DNA of 64,000 bases from Candidatus Ozemobacteraceae bacterium (GCA_035388825.1 DAOOQQ010000013.1:14492-78491); one strand, 5' to 3'; shown: positions 42,789 to 49,073, numbered from the stretch's first letter. Numbers and translations are program-made. The notes: generated from the letters alone by a model not told the origin.

Positions 42789-43369
42789 AACTCTGGATCG
42801 CGACGGGAAACCGTCACAAGCTTCAGGAGATCGGCGCGATTCTCGGCGACTCCGTGAGCCTCCGGTGTCAGCTCGACCTGCCTGGTATGGCCGATGTCGA
42901 CGAAACAGGCGCCACCTACCGCGAAAATGCCGAAATCAAGGCTCGCGCGCTCTGGGAGCGTGTTCGGGAACCCGTGTTTGCCGATGATTCGGGCCTGGAG
43001 GTCGATGCCCTGGGCGGCCGCCCGGGAATCCACTCCCAGCGCTATTCTGCGCCGAATCCGACGCATGAGAAGAATATCGACAAGCTGTTGAACGAGCTGG
43101 CCGACCTGCCGCCGGACAAGCGGTCCGCACGCTTCCGCTGCGTGATCTGCTTCATCGACGATGCCGGGGTGTCGCGGTTTTTCGAAGGCACCCTGGAAGG
43201 CCGGATCGGATTCGAACGCCGCGGGAAGGGGGGCTTCGGCTTCGACCCGGTGTTCATGCTGCCGGAGCGTGGTTGTAGCGTCGCCGAGCTGGCCGAGGAG
43301 GAAAAAAACCGGATCAGCCATCGGGGCCGTGCCGTCATAGAGTTGAAGAGGTTCCTCCAGCTTCCCTGA
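42785..43369 (+). CDS. rdgB: non-canonical purine NTP pyrophosphatase (RdgB/HAM1)
   Basis: Motifs IATGNRHKLQEI, EN(A)xxKA, GFGFDPVF and SHRGRA. ATGA overlap with rph. Confidence 0.9.
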   Translation: MKLWIATGNRHKLQEIGAILGDSVSLRCQLDLPGMADVDETGATYRENAEIKARALWERVREPVFADDSGLEVDALGGRPGIHSQRYSAPNPTHEKNIDKLLNELADLPPDKRSARFRCVICFIDDAGVSRFFEGTLEGRIGFERRGKGGFGFDPVFMLPERGCSVAELAEEEKNRISHRGRAVIELKRFLQLP

Positions 43370-43387
43370 AGCCGTTTTGGGCCCACG

Positions 43388-43428
43388 AACGGGGCGCCAC
43401 GCACATCTTGCGCGGCGCCCCGTTTTTT
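43388..43428 (+). terminator. rho-independent terminator of the rph-rdgB operon
   Basis: AACGGGGCGCC ... GGCGCCCCGTT hairpin (11 bp) followed by a T6 run. Confidence 0.8.
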
Positions 43429-43638
43429 CGCCGTTTTTCTGCGATCAGCTTCATTGCGTTTCCTCGAGGACCTCTTCGCCATCGAACAACTCGCATCCCA
43501 GGAAATTTGGATGCTTCGAGTTCCCCCCTCACATACGCTTTCCCAGGGAGGTGATTCGCTTTCATTCTCATCCCTCGCGGATTTCCGACATCCGCGAACG
43601 GAAGCGGGCAACACAAAATAATCAAATAAATGATTGTT

Positions 43639-43693
43639 ATAATATGATAATGGTATGATGATATTGAATAATGATAAATAATAATATGATAAT
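43639..43693. repeat. 13-bp perfect direct repeat ATAATATGATAAT x2 (43639..43651 and 43681..43693) plus a degenerate copy at 43667..43679, inside an extreme AT island of about 130 nt
   Basis: Read directly from the sequence. The repeat starts are 42 bp apart. The surrounding DNA at 43610..43740 is almost entirely A/T in an otherwise GC-rich window. Confidence 0.85.
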
Positions 43694-43869
43694 AATAGTG
43701 ATTTTGAGATATAAAAGGTCATATTATCAGGATACTATTTGTTTTGTGGAGGGAAAGGAGGGGATCGTAGAAGAGGGTGGAAGAGTCACCAGATCACGAA
43801 AGCGTCGCTATCAGAAGCCGCTGTTGTCTGGAATTTCCGAAAAACCGGAGGGGATGTTGGGAAACGCGA

Positions 43870-44871
43870 TCAGGCGAGGTCGATGATGTTCGTTGCCTGA
43901 TGCCGACCTGCTGTCTCCAGAAGGCCGGGATGGCCGTCCAGGACGTGGCAGGGGGAGCCGGTCGGAGTGGCGGGCCGCCGGAGATCCTTGAAAAAGGGGG
44001 ATCGCACGGCTTCCTCCAGCGAGTGGTTCGGATAACGGTGGAGGCTCCAGGGGATATGGGGACAGGGGAGGATCCACCCGTCAGCCGACACGGCGATCAC
44101 CCGACCGCCGGCAGCGCAGGGAGCCGGTTCGAGGCAGGGCGAAAGAAGTTCGATCCCTGCCTGCCTGTCCGATCCCTTGCAGAGGCGGGTCAGTTGCTCC
44201 CGATCGCTGGCCGAGAGAGGGGTGAGCGGCCCGGATGATGGGTCGAAGGGAAGAAGCGGAGAAAAGACGGCGAAGGAGCAGCCCTGGGAAGCAAGAAAGG
44301 CAGGGAAAGCCGGCGAGGTCGTTTCCAGGAGATTTTCCCGGTAGACGCGCACCGAGGCCCCGAAGGGAATGCCGGAAGCTTTGAGAAGCGTTGCGGCCGA
44401 AAGAAACGCCGTCGACGAGTCGGGGCTTCTGAACCTTGCCGAAGCCTCGGGGCCATCCGTGCTGAGCAACACCAGGATGTGGGGAAACGGTTCGAGGGAT
44501 GCGACGATTTCGCGGGTCAGCAGAAGGCCGTTCGTGACGAACGAAAAGCTGATCTGGGGAAACCGCTCGAGGGCGGAACGGATCGATGCGAGTTCCAGAA
44601 GCGGCTCGCCGCCCGTGAACGAGATCCGGGGGATGCCGAGGGCCGCCGCTTCCGCGACGAGGCGGAGAAGGGTTTCCCTGGGCATGCGGCGTTCCGGCCG
44701 GTCTGCTTTAATGCAGGAGCAGCCGTGACACCGGAGATTGCAGGCCGACGTCAGCTCGATGATCAGGCCGGGCGGGATCGGTATCGCCGAGAAGCCTGCC
44801 CGCAGGCGGCGCAATGCCAGTCGCGCGGCCAGTCGCACCAGGAAAAGGTGCCTGGCGAACCGGGATGGCAT
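43870..44871 (-). CDS. radical SAM protein with C-terminal SPASM/twitch-like Cys cluster
   Basis: Motif LTSACNLRCHGCSC (CxxxCxxC) and a C-terminal block CLEPAPCAAGG..VIAVSADGWILPCPH...SPC. Confidence 0.8.
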   Translation of the reverse strand: MPSRFARHLFLVRLAARLALRRLRAGFSAIPIPPGLIIELTSACNLRCHGCSCIKADRPERRMPRETLLRLVAEAAALGIPRISFTGGEPLLELASIRSALERFPQISFSFVTNGLLLTREIVASLEPFPHILVLLSTDGPEASARFRSPDSSTAFLSAATLLKASGIPFGASVRVYRENLLETTSPAFPAFLASQGCSFAVFSPLLPFDPSSGPLTPLSASDREQLTRLCKGSDRQAGIELLSPCLEPAPCAAGGRVIAVSADGWILPCPHIPWSLHRYPNHSLEEAVRSPFFKDLRRPATPTGSPCHVLDGHPGLLETAGRHQATNIIDLA

Positions 44872-44874
44872 CGC

Positions 44875-45099
44875 TCAGGGAGCCGTGCCGGAGGCTTGAA
44901 TGGGCGCGGAGGCCGCGGCCGGGGCATGGATCGACGGAGTGGCCGAAGCCGTCGGCGCGGGGCTGGAGGGCGTCAACCCGTACGTCACCAGCACGTGAAC
45001 GACGATGCCGAACGCGGCGACGAAGCAGAACAGCAGAAACGCCGAGCCGGTTCCCACACCTGGGGGTGTGGGGGTGATGCAATGCCCGCGACGGTTCAT
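44875..45099 (-). CDS. 74-aa single-pass membrane peptide with Pro/Ala/Ser/Thr-rich tail (hypothetical)
   Basis: The ATG at 45099 overlaps the PilZ-gene stop (ATGA), and the stop lies 3 nt before the radical SAM start. Third-codon positions are strongly G/C, as in real genes here. TM helix GSAFLLFCFVAAFGIVVHVLVTYG. Confidence 0.55.
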   Translation of the reverse strand: MNRRGHCITPTPPGVGTGSAFLLFCFVAAFGIVVHVLVTYGLTPSSPAPTASATPSIHAPAAASAPIQASGTAP

Positions 45100-46535
45100 G
45101 CGAGGACCCGCTTCCAGGCGGCGGTTACTTCCCGTGGCAGGCAGGCGGCATCGATCATTTCGAGGCAGGTGGCCGGCAGATGTGCGGGCAGGGCGGATTC
45201 GCGTTCGAGAATGTCGAGCGGAAGCTCCCAGTCGCGCGGGAACACGATGCCGCCCGGGCATTTCCAGGCGGCCAGGGCGCCGCGTTCCCAGACGAGAATG
45301 TGATCCATGAAGGAGATGCGGCCGGCCGTGAGAGTGGCGTCGGGCGCGACGATCGAGATGACGTGGGTGTTGTGGAGGCCGATGTGCAGGTAGGCCCGGG
45401 CTGTGCGAAATGCTGCGGGGAGCTCCTCGAGGGGGGCCGGCAACTCTTCGAGGGATTGGCCGAGCAGCCGGGGGGCGAGGAAGCGGGCAAACGCGTCGCT
45501 GTCGGGAGCATCCAGCTCGAGGCTGCCGCCGATCGTCTGGGGGGTTGCATACAGGATGCGCACGTTCACGGTCAGTGCGGTGCCGCCGAGTTCGAGCAGG
45601 CCGGATAGCCGATCACCCCGGCGACCGACCGTGTCGGCGCCCGCCTCGGGGGTCAGGAAGGCGATGCCGCCGGCGCTGAGGTTGGCGACGACGAGCGGCC
45701 GATCGACTTGGCCGTCGGGAAGGAAGCGCGGGGCCTGGTCGCCGGCCCGGACGATATATCGCTGATACAGACGGCGTTCCTCCCGGACCAGGTTCGAGAG
45801 CATCTGATCGCGCGCATCCGCAGGAAGGGCGGCGCATTCGAGGATCTTGCGACCCATCTGGAGCGCGCGATGTGACGGAATCTTGAAAAAGACGACGGTC
45901 GAGGGGTCGATCCGGCCGAATCCCGTCTTGCCCCGCTCGTCGCGCAGCCGGCCGGTCTGGAATGCCTGCGTGTGCTGGTTCCATGTGATGATATAATCTA
46001 AAAAATAGTATTCCTGCTTGACGATCTCGCCCTCGAGCGACTGCCAGAGGAAGATCTGCGTGCCTTCGTCCCCCTGGAACCAGCGCATCCGGAGGTTGCC
46101 CTCCTGGTTCTGGAGGCGGGAGCCGTCGATCTCGGCGATCGAGGCGCCGAGGATGCGGGGCTTGAGAAAATCGCTCACCAGGTGGGCCGCGGCGGGGGTC
46201 AGGCCCGAGAACGAACAGCCGAAAACGGTTCCGACCCGGTTGCAGACCGTCAGGCGCGTCGAGAACCGCGTGTTGCCGAGCTGGATGCGCGCCTCGACGG
46301 CCTCCCCTGCCCCGGGGAGGGGGGTGTCGGCGGTTTCGGCCGGAATCTCGAACTTGATGCCGCCGTAGCTGAGGTTCAGCACCGTGAAGGGGCCGGCCTC
46401 GTTCAGCCAGACGAGCCCGTCGGAAAGACCGATGCGCTGGAACCGGCGCCGCTCGCTCTGGGCGGGGGCCTGTTCCGGGGCCTGTTCGCCGGCGTCACGG
46501 CCGGTGATCCAGTTCAGCAGTTGCCTGAAATCCAT
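45096..46535 (-). CDS. tandem PilZ-domain protein (putative c-di-GMP receptor), 479 aa
   Basis: Two PilZ signatures: RRRFQR...NLSYGG and RRLYQR...NLSAGG. The internal ATG at 46535 is preceded by a GGGAGAGGA RBS. The ORF-track 5' extension looks non-coding. Confidence 0.75.
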   Translation of the reverse strand: MDFRQLLNWITGRDAGEQAPEQAPAQSERRRFQRIGLSDGLVWLNEAGPFTVLNLSYGGIKFEIPAETADTPLPGAGEAVEARIQLGNTRFSTRLTVCNRVGTVFGCSFSGLTPAAAHLVSDFLKPRILGASIAEIDGSRLQNQEGNLRMRWFQGDEGTQIFLWQSLEGEIVKQEYYFLDYIITWNQHTQAFQTGRLRDERGKTGFGRIDPSTVVFFKIPSHRALQMGRKILECAALPADARDQMLSNLVREERRLYQRYIVRAGDQAPRFLPDGQVDRPLVVANLSAGGIAFLTPEAGADTVGRRGDRLSGLLELGGTALTVNVRILYATPQTIGGSLELDAPDSDAFARFLAPRLLGQSLEELPAPLEELPAAFRTARAYLHIGLHNTHVISIVAPDATLTAGRISFMDHILVWERGALAAWKCPGGIVFPRDWELPLDILERESALPAHLPATCLEMIDAACLPREVTAAWKRVLA

Positions 46536-46558
46536 TCCTCTCCCTCTGTCTGTCGGTC

Positions 46559-46573
46559 CTGATACTATATCAG
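46559..46573. promoter_or_regulatory. palindromic operator candidate CTGATA-cta-TATCAG in the divergent control region
   Basis: Perfect 6-bp arms. It lies 24 nt upstream of the PilZ-operon start and overlaps a possible minus-strand -10 (TATAGT/TAGTAT). Confidence 0.35.
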
Positions 46574-46621
46574 AGTTTGTATTCGCAAGCCTCCCAGGCG
46601 AGGACGCAGTCGGTTCCGCAG

Positions 46622-46641
46622 GGGCGGATCGCGATCCGCCC
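46622..46641. promoter_or_regulatory. 20-bp perfect palindrome GGGCGGATCGCGATCCGCCC
   Basis: Read directly from the sequence. It is central in the 181-nt divergent intergenic region. Confidence 0.4.
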
Positions 46642-46664
46642 TTCAGCGCTGCCTTGCGGTGGGG

Positions 46665-46692
46665 TTGTTTGATCGGGAGAATCTGATACAAT
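46665..46692 (+). promoter_or_regulatory. sigma70-like promoter candidate (TTGTTT - 16 nt - TACAAT) for the AAA+/CheW operon
   Basis: The -10 TACAAT at 46687..46692 overlaps another CTGATA half-site (46683..46688). A GTGAGG RBS precedes the ATG at 46717. Confidence 0.35.
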
Positions 46693-46716
46693 AAGGGCCG
46701 GAAAGTGAGGCACACA

Positions 46717-48330
46717 ATGGATCTGATCAAGGAATTGAGCGACCATATCCGGGCGCGGTATCCGGTGCTGTATCTCGTGACGGGCGAGGAAGCCCGTGCC
46801 ATGGCGGCTCTGAGCGATGTCGCAAAAGCCGTCGGCAAGACCCTCTGGATCTGGTCGGCCTCCGACGGGCTGATCGACCCGAAGGGGGCCGAGGTGAAGG
46901 ATGCCAAAGGCGAGCCACTCGTCAGCCCGCTCAAAGCCCTTCGATACGCGCTCCGCTCGCAGGAAAAGGCGCTGTTCGTGTTCCGCGACCTCCATCTCTT
47001 CTTTGAAGACCCGCTTCCGGCCTATCTGAGCGACCCGCTGCAGGTGCGCCGCCTGTTGCGCGACATCGCGATCGCGTTTCGGACGAGCTACAAGAGCCTC
47101 GTGCTGGTTTCCCCGATCCTGCGCGTGCCGCACGAACTCGAGAAAGAGATCACCGTGTTCGATTTCCCGATTCCCACCCAGAAGGAGATCGCCGGCCTGC
47201 TCGAGAGCGTCATCTCCGAAGTGCAGCGCATCCACGGCGGCAAGGTGCAGATCAGTCTCAACGCCGATGCCCGTGACCGCATCGTGAAATCCGTTTCCGG
47301 GCTCACCCAGTCCGAGGTCGAAAACGTGTTCAACCGGGCGATCGTGAACGACCTGAAGTTCGACGAGTCCGACATCCCGTTCATCCTTTCCGAGAAGAAG
47401 CAGATCATCCGCAAGAGTGGCCTGCTCGAATACTACGAGGTGCAGGAGCAGCTGGCGAACGTCGGCGGGCTGGAGATCCTGAAAGACTGGCTGGTCAAGC
47501 GCGGCGAGGCGTTCACGGCGCGGGCCCGCGAGTTCGGCCTGCCCGAGCCGAAGGGCATCCTGCTGCTGGGCGTTCAGGGCTGCGGCAAGAGCCTGATCTC
47601 GAAATCGATCAGTTCGCTCTGGCGGCTGCCCCTGCTGCGGCTCGACGTGGGCTCGATCTTCGGGAAATACGTCGGCGAGTCCGAGGAAAACCTGCGACGC
47701 GCGATCCGCATGGCGGAAGCGCTTTCCCCGACGATTCTCTGGCTCGACGAGATCGAGAAGGCGTTCGCCGGGGTCTCGGGCGGAAGCGGCGACGGCGGCG
47801 TCAGCAGCCGCATCTTCGGCAGCTTCATCACCTGGCTGCAGGAGAAGACGGTGCCGGTGTTCGTCATCGCGACCTCGAACAATATCCGCGACCTGCCGGC
47901 AGAGCTGCTGCGCAAGGGCCGGTTCGACGAGATTTTCTTCGTCGATCTGCCCACCGACGAGGAGCGGCGCGCCATCTTCACCATCCACCTCGCGAAGCGG
48001 CGGCGCGATCCGGCGAAGTTCGATCTGGCCGAGCTTTCCGCCGTCAGCGAGGGCTTCTCGGGCGCCGAAATCGAGCAGGCCGTCATCAGCGCGATGTTCG
48101 ATGCGTTCCATGCCGGTCGCGACCTCGAGACCTCCGATCTGCGCAAGTCCCTCACCGAAACCGTGCCGCTCGCCGTCACGATGCGCGAGCAGATTGCCGG
48201 CCTGCGCGACTGGGCCGCGACCCGCGCCAAGCGCGCCTCGATCGGAAAACCCCCGGCCGCCGGCGCCTCGGCACGCCCCGGGGCCTCCCACCCGGCCGGC
48301 CTCATCGAACCTGGAGAAAAGAAGCCATGA
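46717..48330 (+). CDS. AAA+ ATPase, Ycf46-like architecture (N-terminal non-ATPase domain + one classical AAA module)
   Basis: The N-terminus IRARYPVLYLVTGEEARAM matches my recollection of Ycf46-type proteins. Walker A GVQGCGKSLI, Walker B ILWLDEIEKAF, and second region of homology ATSNNIRDLPAELLRKGRFDEIF. Confidence 0.85.
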   Translation: MDLIKELSDHIRARYPVLYLVTGEEARAMAALSDVAKAVGKTLWIWSASDGLIDPKGAEVKDAKGEPLVSPLKALRYALRSQEKALFVFRDLHLFFEDPLPAYLSDPLQVRRLLRDIAIAFRTSYKSLVLVSPILRVPHELEKEITVFDFPIPTQKEIAGLLESVISEVQRIHGGKVQISLNADARDRIVKSVSGLTQSEVENVFNRAIVNDLKFDESDIPFILSEKKQIIRKSGLLEYYEVQEQLANVGGLEILKDWLVKRGEAFTARAREFGLPEPKGILLLGVQGCGKSLISKSISSLWRLPLLRLDVGSIFGKYVGESEENLRRAIRMAEALSPTILWLDEIEKAFAGVSGGSGDGGVSSRIFGSFITWLQEKTVPVFVIATSNNIRDLPAELLRKGRFDEIFFVDLPTDEERRAIFTIHLAKRRRDPAKFDLAELSAVSEGFSGAEIEQAVISAMFDAFHAGRDLETSDLRKSLTETVPLAVTMREQIAGLRDWAATRAKRASIGKPPAAGASARPGASHPAGLIEPGEKKP

Positions 48331-48875
48331 GCCCCGTTCTTCCCTTCCGCCGCGACTCGGATATCCTCGAACGGATCAAAAAACAGGGGGGCCGGACCGC
48401 CGAGGACACCCGGTATCTTCAGCTCGTGACGGTGCGGCTCGGCGGAACCTCGTTCGCGGTCGATGCCCTCGCCGTGGCCGAAATCCTGATCGCTCCCCCC
48501 CTGATCGATGTACCGGCCACCGCACCCCTGTTGAGCGGCGTGGTGAATATTCGTGGAAATATTATTCCCGTCTTCGATCCCCGTCCGCGGCTGAATATCG
48601 CCCCGGCTGATCCCGGAACGCCGGCAACCGAAGAGGAACGACGGCTGCTCGTCTTCCGGGCCGCCGAGGGGCTTCTCGGAATGATCGTCGACGACGTGAC
48701 GCTCCGGCTTTCCGACGGACGGGTGCCGCCCAGGCCCCCGGACGGCGTGACCCTCGCCCCCGGCTGCGCACGCATGGCCGAGATCGGCGAAAGCCTGCTT
48801 CCGCTCCTCGAGATCGAGGTCGTCCTGACTCCCGATGAACGGCGGGCGCTTTCCGACGTGAAAAATTCGTTTTGA
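48327..48875 (+). CDS. stand-alone CheW-like domain protein
   Basis: CheW-domain pattern YLQLVTVRLGGTSFAVDALAVAEI...VPATAPLLSGVVNIRGNIIPVFD...GMIVDDV. ATGA overlap with the AAA+ gene. Confidence 0.8.
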   Translation: MSPVLPFRRDSDILERIKKQGGRTAEDTRYLQLVTVRLGGTSFAVDALAVAEILIAPPLIDVPATAPLLSGVVNIRGNIIPVFDPRPRLNIAPADPGTPATEEERRLLVFRAAEGLLGMIVDDVTLRLSDGRVPPRPPDGVTLAPGCARMAEIGESLLPLLEIEVVLTPDERRALSDVKNSF

Positions 48876-48914
48876 TCGAGTTTTTTAATATCACCCTCAA
48901 GAGGAGAATCTGAC

Positions 48915-49073
48915 ATGGACAAGTATCGATGCATGGTCTGCGGGTATGAGTATGATCCGGCCGTCGGTGATCCGGACGGCGGTATCGCTCCCGGCACCCC
49001 GTTCGAGAAGATTCCCGACTCCTGGGTCTGCCCGACCTGCGGCGTCAGCAAGGATCAGTTCGAGAAAATCTGA
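48915..49073 (+). CDS. rubredoxin (52 aa; below the ORF-track length cut-off)
   Basis: My own translation is [52 protein letters not shown]. It has both CxxCG knuckles. GAGGAG RBS at 48901. Confidence 0.9.

Follow-up and report, generated by a model that had tools for sequence, protein, structure and literature searches.

A resident tandem-PilZ gene followed by a rare radical SAM and GHC-motif membrane-protein module in Candidatus Ozemobacteraceae

A stretch of 64,000 nucleotides from Candidatus Ozemobacteraceae bacterium (GCA_035388825.1, DAOOQQ010000013.1:14492-78491), referred to here as the window, carries three genes packed head-to-tail on the minus strand. These are a tandem-PilZ gene (45096..46535; ATG at 46535, TGA at 45096, 479 amino acids), the gene of a small membrane protein (44875..45099; ATG at 45099, TGA at 44875, 74 amino acids), and the gene of a radical S-adenosylmethionine (SAM) enzyme (43870..44871; ATG at 44871, 333 amino acids). 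The stop codon of the PilZ gene and the start codon of the small open reading frame (ORF) overlap in the tetranucleotide ATGA (45096..45099), and the stop codon of the small ORF is separated from the radical SAM start codon by a 3-nt gap (GCG). A 128-amino-acid entry in the ORF track (44875..45261) is the small-ORF frame extended upstream from an ATG inside the PilZ gene. In all these statements the sequence-only reading, by which the locus was first noticed, is confirmed. That reading considered the three genes one dedicated cassette for the modification of a membrane-anchored peptide, gated by the second messenger cyclic dimeric guanosine monophosphate (c-di-GMP). The present analysis points to a composite locus instead, in which a rare two-gene module, comprising the radical SAM gene and the small membrane-protein gene, lies behind a resident PilZ gene.

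The tandem-PilZ protein matches the Pfam PilZ model (PF07238) in two stretches, at 46.9 bits (expectation value [E] 3.6e-12; gathering score 22.5), and both signatures previously read from the sequence are complete. Domain 1, the best Pfam stretch (amino acids 28-121; 46173..46454, minus strand), holds the RxxxR motif as R30-R34 (RRFQR) and the [DN]xSxxG motif as N54-L-S56-Y-G-G59 (NLSYGG), and domain 2, the second stretch (amino acids ~250-345; 45501..45788, minus strand), holds them as R255-R259 (RLYQR) and N285-L-S287-A-G-G290 (NLSAGG). Among 37 aligned homologues, R30, R34, and G59 of domain 1 and R259 of domain 2 are invariant, and N54, S56, and G58 of the former and R255, L256, N285, S287, and G290 of the latter are at least 90% conserved. 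The AlphaFold2 model (predicted local distance difference test score [pLDDT] 82.9) contains beta strands at residues 259-341 in domain 2, and a Foldseek search with this model returned solved PilZ domains, including those of Alg44, MapZ, MotI, and PlzA, with 4xrn, 4rt0, 5xly, and 5y6g at a probability of 1.00. The modelled architecture, i.e., PilZ barrel, long helix, beta-rich domain, and helices, occurs twice. The protein is an internal duplication whose four-module plan is kept in all 37 aligned homologues, and each barrel is followed by a conserved helix starting FL[KA]PR[IL]LGxSLxE and by a beta-rich domain of ~90 residues without a Pfam assignment. The canonical motifs and the beta-barrel fold are shared with YcgR/MotI, MapZ, and Alg44, and the genes of MapZ and YcgR also lie beside a chemotaxis component, as the PilZ gene here lies beside that of CheW. 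By contrast, the present protein has four modules, with two complete PilZ domains each accompanied by an unassigned beta-rich domain. In total, 39 full-length homologues were found (36-99% identity), all of which belong to Riflebacteria where a taxon is named, and the pairwise ratio of nonsynonymous to synonymous substitution rates (dN/dS, ω) is 0.15-0.25. The gene probably encodes a c-di-GMP receptor.

The small ORF has a G+C content of 0.80 at third codon positions, and public collections already list its exact sequence as that of a called protein. Orthologues of 74-85 amino acids occupy the same position in five further lineages (loci L003, L002, L005, L001, and L127), and its pairwise dN/dS of 0.18-0.40 is comparable to that of the neighbouring genes. 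The small ORF is a real gene, as had been proposed, and is under purifying selection. Its product begins with MNRRGHCITPTPP, continues with a single hydrophobic helix (amino acids ~18-42, GSAFLLFCFVAAFGIVVHVLVTYGL; 44974..45048, minus strand; hydropathy maximum 2.63) predicted to span the membrane, and ends in a tail rich in proline, alanine, serine, and threonine (P/A/S/T), delimited in the alignment (amino acids 43-74; 44878..44973, minus strand). Residues R3-R4-G5-H6-C7-I8 (codons at 45076..45093, minus strand) form the signature [RK]xGHC[IF], a proposed recognition or modification site, in which G5, H6, and C7 are invariant in five of five aligned orthologues and are also present in L127. 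The remaining invariant residues are R3, P10, and P12-P13, together with C25, H35, T39, and Y40 on one face of the helix. Values of ω are 0.02-0.34 for the N-terminus and helix versus 0.25-0.86 for the tail, of which the composition is conserved and the sequence weakly constrained. Because the N-terminus is basic, an N-in, C-out topology is predicted by the positive-inside rule, which would place the GHC segment in the cytoplasm next to the membrane and the tail outside the cytoplasm. In one lineage (L001, positions 1-200), the PilZ frame lacks its usual stop codon, one nucleotide being missing before the ATGA relative to the window. This frame continues for another ~50 codons, overlapping the small ORF in a different reading phase, and the gene caller annotated the extended frame and not the small ORF; the loss of the stop codon is either a real variant or an assembly error.

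The radical SAM enzyme scores 58.6 bits against Pfam Radical_SAM (PF04055; E 1.1e-15; cut-off 29.5). The ligands of the radical SAM [4Fe-4S] cluster, C44-x3-C48-x2-C51 (44719..44742, minus strand), are invariant in all orthologues, including the distant proteins P0134 and P0135 described below, and the SAM-binding GGEP motif (G87-G88-E89-P90) is also invariant among the orthologues. The ω values are 0.11-0.30. In a full SPASM domain (PF13186/TIGR04085), seven cysteines in the pattern CX9-15GX4C ... CX2CX5CX3C ... C hold two auxiliary clusters. The auxiliary-cluster region here (C246, C252-x12-G265-x4-C270, C308; 43948..44136, minus strand) contains four cysteines that are invariant in seven sequences, and no other C-terminal cysteine is conserved. 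The first half of the SPASM pattern, C-x12-G-x4-C, is present, the CX2CX5CX3C element is absent, and the Pfam SPASM score of 17.6 bits lies below the gathering score of 21.5. Furthermore, the model contains a beta-hairpin at residues 258-268, and its second-best structural match is SkfB, a twitch-domain enzyme. The sequence-only reading had described the C-terminal cysteines as SPASM/twitch type; the twitch designation stands and SPASM does not, and the C-terminus is best described as a predicted one-cluster twitch-type domain. In the AlphaFold2 model (pLDDT 86.9), a basic N-terminal helix (residues 4-28) precedes a radical SAM core of alternating strands and helices and a small C-terminal domain. 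The segment before the core is a helix of only 35 residues, which leaves no room for an N-terminal peptide-recognition domain.

No curated NCBIfam radical SAM model comes near its cut-off with this enzyme, the best being MoaA (46.1 bits versus 284) and PqqE (44.6 versus 381). The matches mostly cover the N-terminal core only, and the orthologues are likewise far below the cut-offs. MoaA, PqqE, the anaerobic sulfatase-maturating enzyme (anSME), NirJ/AhbD, HpnH, viperin, and the named maturases of RiPPs (peptides made by the ribosome and modified after translation) were considered as the family of the enzyme and rejected, all being far below curated cut-offs. The anSME model (TIGR03942) is not among the top matches of the enzyme of the window, an orthologue (P0003) scores 35 bits versus 349, and the partner motif GHC[IF] has no arginine at position +4. 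A defence assignment by PADLOC was not made, since only a weak N-terminal viperin-like similarity (37 bits) was found. The enzyme belongs to no curated family and, as previously supposed, falls in none of known non-peptide function. Foldseek placed SuiB, SkfB, and CteB first, followed by viperins, anSME, BlsE, PqqE, and MoaA, and in a sequence search of the Protein Data Bank PqqE was the best and sole full-length match (residues 30-309, E 5.4e-16), SkfB being matched at 1.4e-12. The nearest solved relatives are PqqE, SuiB, SkfB, CteB, and anSME, mostly peptide-modifying enzymes.

The distribution of these genes was assessed in 28 species-representative loci fetched with the PilZ alignment, and all loci were then searched with the neighbour proteins of the window. 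A conserved backbone was found. Divergently upstream of PilZ it comprises genes for penicillin amidase, rubredoxin, and CheW, joined in closer relatives by one for an AAA ATPase, and RNase PH/Ham1 and a metallo-beta-lactamase-fold gene lie beside PilZ. In much of the phylum, CheW and rubredoxin are encoded close to PilZ, and in most loci they directly adjoin it. This gene context, with a lone CheW beside PilZ across the phylum, and the fold likeness to MapZ and MotI hint at a role of the PilZ protein in chemotaxis or motility. A search with the radical SAM enzyme yielded four close homologues only, followed by proteins of at most 30% identity, and the small ORF and the radical SAM gene were detected only in the window, L003/L004/L011, L001, L002, L005/L006, and L127. 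Only one of the 28 species-representative loci carries this pair. It is absent from the other 27, most of which extend over more than 1.2 kb downstream of PilZ, and in these 27 loci PilZ is of full length with intact motifs. The small ORF lies directly upstream of the radical SAM gene in six of six lineages (the window, L003, L002, L005, L127, and L001, which is cut in PilZ), and the same 4-nt overlap between PilZ and the small ORF occurs in L002, L003/L004, L005/L006, and L127, a recurrence that is more than chance.

The most informative comparison is provided by three sister genomes (L012, L013, and L014), which possess the same backbone and a PilZ protein 70-71% identical to that of the window, i.e., as close as those of L002 and L005, and from which exactly the small ORF and the radical SAM gene are missing. 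The end of Ham1 follows PilZ after 320-460 bp in these genomes, homology extends to the PilZ stop codon and resumes ~55-140 nt past the L005 radical SAM stop codon, and no remnant of the small ORF or radical SAM gene is seen in the aligned region. The 1.3-kb cassette is a clean unit that a genome either has or lacks. By neighbour-joining, both PilZ and the backbone proteins place L012-L014 within the cassette-bearing clade, and the topology of the radical SAM tree matches that of the backbone. These data are most simply explained by a single gain in a genus-level ancestor within Ozemobacteraceae, vertical descent, and a single clean loss in L012-L014. The tandem-PilZ gene is an ancestral, resident, phylum-wide gene of Riflebacteria with a core role independent of the genes downstream, and the former proposal that it is the dedicated first gene of the cassette is not sustained. 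Of the trio formerly regarded as one conserved unit, the pair of radical SAM enzyme and small protein remains, PilZ being found in the same backbone with or without it. In comparisons of the window with L002 and L005, synonymous divergence (dS) is ~1.4-1.7 for the small ORF and the radical SAM gene versus ~0.9 for PilZ in the same genome pairs, and protein identity is 50% versus 70%. Across the lineages compared, dS of the cassette genes is ~1.4-2.0, near or above saturation, and exceeds that of PilZ by a factor of ~1.7 in the same pairs. Faster evolution, a different codon constraint, or a partly separate history could underlie this difference.

Evidence regarding the nature of the pair was obtained from distant relatives. 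In an exhaustive hidden Markov model search of 1.84 billion representatives, the enzyme's own cluster scored 623 bits, and only P0134 (215 bits, 317 amino acids) and P0135 (187 bits, 325 amino acids) stood out from a continuum of generic radical SAM proteins at 154 bits or less, so that the subfamily comprises ~3 clusters at 50% identity. The distant orthologues are 34-40% identical to the enzyme of the window, and their genes lie 1-23 nt from genes of ~335-amino-acid Prok-RING_1 (PF14446) membrane proteins in either gene order: the radical SAM gene follows such a gene after a 1-nt gap in L039 and precedes one by a 3-nt gap in L040. The two membrane proteins are homologous (E 5e-34), and a search with them identified four family members and the same pairing in L121-L123 and L125, the enzyme of L121-L123 being 40% identical to that of the window (E 1e-54). 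No PilZ gene was found at these loci. The N-termini of the Prok-RING partners read RRTGHCI, RRSGHCF, RRSGHCF, and RRSGHCF, each followed by a hydrophobic helix (RRGRRTGHCIILP, KPWRRSGHCFYVGP, NRWRRSGHCFSAGP, and SRWRRSGHCFSAGP, the last from the true TTG start in L121), and correspond to the N-terminal [RK]xGHC[IF]-plus-helix module of the small protein. The protein of the window has neither the RING finger nor the C-terminal multi-helix domain of these partners and carries the short tail instead.

To assess the specificity of the signature, the window and 126 loci (1.05 Mb) were translated in six frames, and the resulting 9561 open segments, each 50 amino acids or longer, were scanned for [RK][RKST]GHC[IF]; 80 loci centred on unrelated radical SAM genes were included as negative controls. 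There were 15 matches, all 15 in partner genes of this radical SAM subfamily and none elsewhere. The small protein therefore looks like the N-terminal module of the larger Prok-RING partners with a short tail attached, and the radical SAM enzyme and the GHC-motif membrane protein would constitute the conserved functional unit. The P/A/S/T tail, which the sequence-only reading had noted in the peptide, is by contrast the least constrained segment and has no counterpart in the Prok-RING partners; what is shared is the N-terminal GHC motif. A module criterion was defined here and is not a curated one: a radical SAM enzyme above 185 bits to profile A4 and an adjoining gene whose product has an Arg/Lys-rich start, [RK]xGHC[IF], and a hydrophobic helix. 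It identifies the window, L001, L002, L003, L005, and L127 as carriers of the small form and L040, L121-L123, and L125 as carriers of the Prok-RING form. The partner's N-terminus is cut by the contig end in L039, and L124 ends at the partner gene. A metagenome-wide locus scan with the radical SAM alignment, keyed on generic radical SAM patterns (E[LV]T..C.L.C and GGEP), returned at least 80 unrelated radical SAM loci (22-38% identity), and the known orthologues were not among the matches listed.

Two further genes were observed at the distant loci. A 479-amino-acid protein is encoded directly upstream of the Prok-RING/radical SAM pair in L121 (5045-6484) and L125 (3-644), 78% identical over the part present in L125, and may belong to the module, in its larger form, as a third member. 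Its equal length prompted the idea of a diverged PilZ protein, which was dismissed because BLASTP gave an E of 2.2 and neither Pfam nor NCBIfam returned a match. In L039 (2249-2761), a phage T4 gp19-type tail-tube gene lies ~430 nt downstream of the radical SAM gene in convergent orientation, overlapping an ORF called after the radical SAM gene, and suggests a contractile injection system or prophage nearby; no gp19-type tail-tube gene is present near the cassette of the window.

Among characterized systems, the sactipeptide thioether synthase SkfB (6efn) shares with the present enzyme the radical SAM core and a twitch domain, i.e., a shortened SPASM fold for one auxiliary cluster (TM score 0.65, root mean square deviation 3.4, sequence identity ~21%). 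SkfB acts on a Cys-containing ribosomal peptide encoded alongside, a parallel to the adjoining partner gene. However, SkfB possesses an N-terminal peptide-binding domain in place of the 35-residue helix and a cluster with export and immunity genes, and the partner here is a membrane protein with a conserved motif at its N-terminus. PqqE, the SPASM enzyme that crosslinks Glu and Tyr of PqqA (6c8v), shares the adjacent small ribosomal peptide and differs in its full SPASM domain and its need for the chaperone PqqD, of which no counterpart was identified among the neighbours. The nearest precedent for maturation of a protein at a Cys motif is anSME, also among the Foldseek matches (4k36-4k39), which converts one specific Cys to formylglycine; this Cys lies in a short motif, and the full-length protein is modified with no leader being cleaved. 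It differs in its full SPASM domain with two auxiliary clusters and in its substrate motif, C/S-x-P/A-x-R. Of a classical RiPP cassette, the small co-conserved gene beside a maturase is present; neither a recognition element nor a protease or exporter gene was seen, the cassette being exactly two genes between PilZ and the convergent Ham1 with no leader protease or exporter gene in it or its immediate neighbours. The pairing of a maturase with a peptide, as first proposed, is upheld in part, i.e., by the conserved pair and its peptide-modifying nearest relatives, and not in these missing elements.

The locus is thus best explained as a composite, in which a rare radical SAM/GHC-motif membrane-protein module was inserted behind the resident tandem-PilZ gene and probably acts on the cytoplasmic GHC cysteine. 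A probability of roughly one half is assigned to this explanation, within which the module of the window is a reduced form of the wider pairing. The following sequence of events is proposed. The two-gene module would have been placed exactly at the PilZ stop codon in the genus-level ancestor. The cytoplasmic enzyme, perhaps positioned at the membrane through its basic N-terminal helix, would recognize the membrane-adjacent GHC segment, and the 5′-deoxyadenosyl radical, together with the one auxiliary cluster, would modify the invariant Cys7 or the neighbouring His6. Related enzymes form Cys thioethers (SkfB and CteB), convert Cys to formylglycine (anSME), or form carbon-carbon crosslinks (PqqE and SuiB). 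Possible products here include a thioether or other crosslink, Cys oxidized to formylglycine, or a similar change, and the outcome would be a matured membrane-anchored protein and not a secreted peptide. As far as gene distribution indicates, PilZ and the module can each do without the other. In the literature, no report combining Prok-RING with radical SAM enzymes and none describing a PilZ and radical SAM cassette was found.

Several observations weigh against this explanation. The link between the small ORF and the Prok-RING partners is drawn from a six-residue motif, its position, and the gene context and not from pairwise homology, BLASTP between the small ORF and the L040 protein giving a non-significant E of 0.4. 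At L126, no radical SAM gene was detected in the ~465 nt after the Prok-RING partner gene. Approximately four independent lineages of the wider module are known, and co-occurrence statistics are accordingly thin. No RiPP recognition element was seen in the enzyme, no PqqD-like Pfam match was found on the three proteins, and none occurs among the identified neighbours. Classical RiPPs, too, combine a conserved N-terminal leader with a variable C-terminal core, and on that pattern the tail could be the substrate. A genuine functional connection with PilZ would fit the ATGA overlap, which persists in all cassette-bearing lineages whose PilZ sequence could be read. Finally, docking, metal binding, or cluster ligation could be the role of the GHC motif, which would then not be a substrate.

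The last point leads to the alternative that survives best, albeit as an unlikely one, namely that the enzyme acts on a small molecule or lipid at the membrane and the GHC protein serves as an anchor, scaffold, or regulator, e.g., by metal or cluster ligation through His and Cys. The short enzyme (333 amino acids), without a visible recognition element and with one auxiliary cluster, resembles MoaA, BtrN, BlsE, and viperin, which are among its structural and sequence matches, and its basic N-terminal helix, the invariant Cys, His, Thr, and Tyr in the membrane helix of the partner, and the lack of protease and exporter genes in the cassette and its immediate neighbours all fit this alternative. 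However, no small-molecule NCBIfam model is approached, the top fold and sequence matches are peptide-modifying enzymes, and the pair travels without other biosynthetic genes. Moreover, an invariant motif at a fixed position in otherwise very different partners is most simply explained as a substrate or recognition site.

The divergent intergenic region shared with the AAA ATPase-CheW operon (46536..46704, as judged from the gene layout) presumably holds the promoter of a transcript covering PilZ, the small ORF, and the radical SAM gene, and no promoter consensus was found in it. The promoter and terminator scan gave no signal inside the operon and none between PilZ and the small ORF, and promoter-like matches were confined to an AT-rich island, as its base composition predicts. 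Given the overlap of the genes and the lack of any promoter or terminator consensus between them, the module is taken to be co-transcribed with PilZ in this clade. It is probably also translationally coupled, and the stop/start overlap implies that module dosage follows PilZ expression. Direct gating of the module by c-di-GMP is possible, a speculation from adjacency.

It is also improbable that the adjacency is functionally meaningless, the module having landed by chance in a permissive intergenic spot beside an AT-rich island and the overlap reflecting genome compaction. The clean 1.3-kb unit, an insertion point next to the lowest-GC spot of the window, a spot that is itself conserved whether or not the cassette is there, and the raised dS of the cassette genes agree with a chance event, but the 4-nt overlap persists in lineages that have diverged at synonymous sites to near or beyond saturation. 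Furthermore, in the absence of a promoter consensus between PilZ and the small ORF, the module is coupled mechanically to PilZ in its expression, however it arose. The weakest alternative, one dedicated three-gene system in which c-di-GMP-bound PilZ binds the enzyme or the peptide and switches on modification of the tail as core, can appeal to the persistent ATGA overlap, the complete binding motifs of both PilZ domains, and the leader/core-like pattern of conservation, but is very improbable in view of the intact PilZ genes in the 27 cassette-less species-representative loci, including L012-L014, the distant radical SAM orthologues without a PilZ neighbour, and a weakly constrained tail that lacks a counterpart in the Prok-RING partners and is predicted to be on the far side of the membrane from a cytoplasmic Fe-S enzyme. 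Most of the support for second-messenger-gated peptide modification is lost. A bolder version of the composite explanation, in which the twitch enzyme covalently modifies a membrane-adjacent Cys or His of either a minimal 74-85-amino-acid anchor or a Prok-RING protein and is, in Ozemobacteraceae, controlled by c-di-GMP via the tandem-PilZ protein, is regarded as a long shot, at the bottom of the scale.

The flanking sequence contains further features. The intergenic region between the radical SAM stop codon and the convergent Ham1 gene (43370..43869) is homologous to the sequence directly after PilZ in cassette-less genomes and comprises a hairpin and the AT-rich island. The hairpin, a 16-bp G+C-rich inverted repeat with a T run directly after the Ham1 stop codon (43388-43424), is a typical intrinsic terminator of the RNase PH-Ham1 operon, and a hairpin of different sequence is found in a similar place after Ham1 in L012-L014. 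The island (43617-43745, ~130 bp) has a G+C content of 17.8% versus 61.7% in the window and is the lowest-GC spot of the 64 kb. At the corresponding intergenic site, L001, L002, L005, L127, and the cassette-less L012-L014 also have such an island (16-25% G+C over 100 nt), and no RNA family match was found in that of the window. An Rfam scan of 43000-47000 gave only a sub-threshold ALIL match (18 bits versus 50), with no riboswitch or c-di-GMP aptamer upstream. On the plus strand, the operon divergent from PilZ (46705-49073) encodes a 541-amino-acid AAA ATPase, CheW (4-nt overlap), and rubredoxin; the ATPase scores 86.8 bits against the PADLOC IetA model, probably via generic AAA similarity.

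The pairing of a radical SAM enzyme with a GHC-motif membrane protein is an undescribed module that, under the composite explanation, works like known radical SAM maturase/substrate pairs. The radical SAM cases known to us mostly yield a secreted peptide or a cofactor, and modification of the GHC motif would be a new case of radical SAM chemistry, maturing a membrane-anchored protein at its cytoplasmic N-terminus. If true, it would also provide a first functional handle on the Prok-RING_1 membrane proteins. The module is very rare, with ~3 clusters at 50% identity in 1.84 billion representatives, and its general importance is accordingly limited; the [RK]xGHC[IF]-plus-helix signature, which gave no false matches in 1.05 Mb, is a simple and specific search key for mining further examples. 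For Riflebacteria, the tandem-PilZ proteins would represent a conserved family of c-di-GMP receptors in an uncultivated phylum, and the natural presence and absence of the module behind PilZ offers a ready comparison for any link to c-di-GMP.

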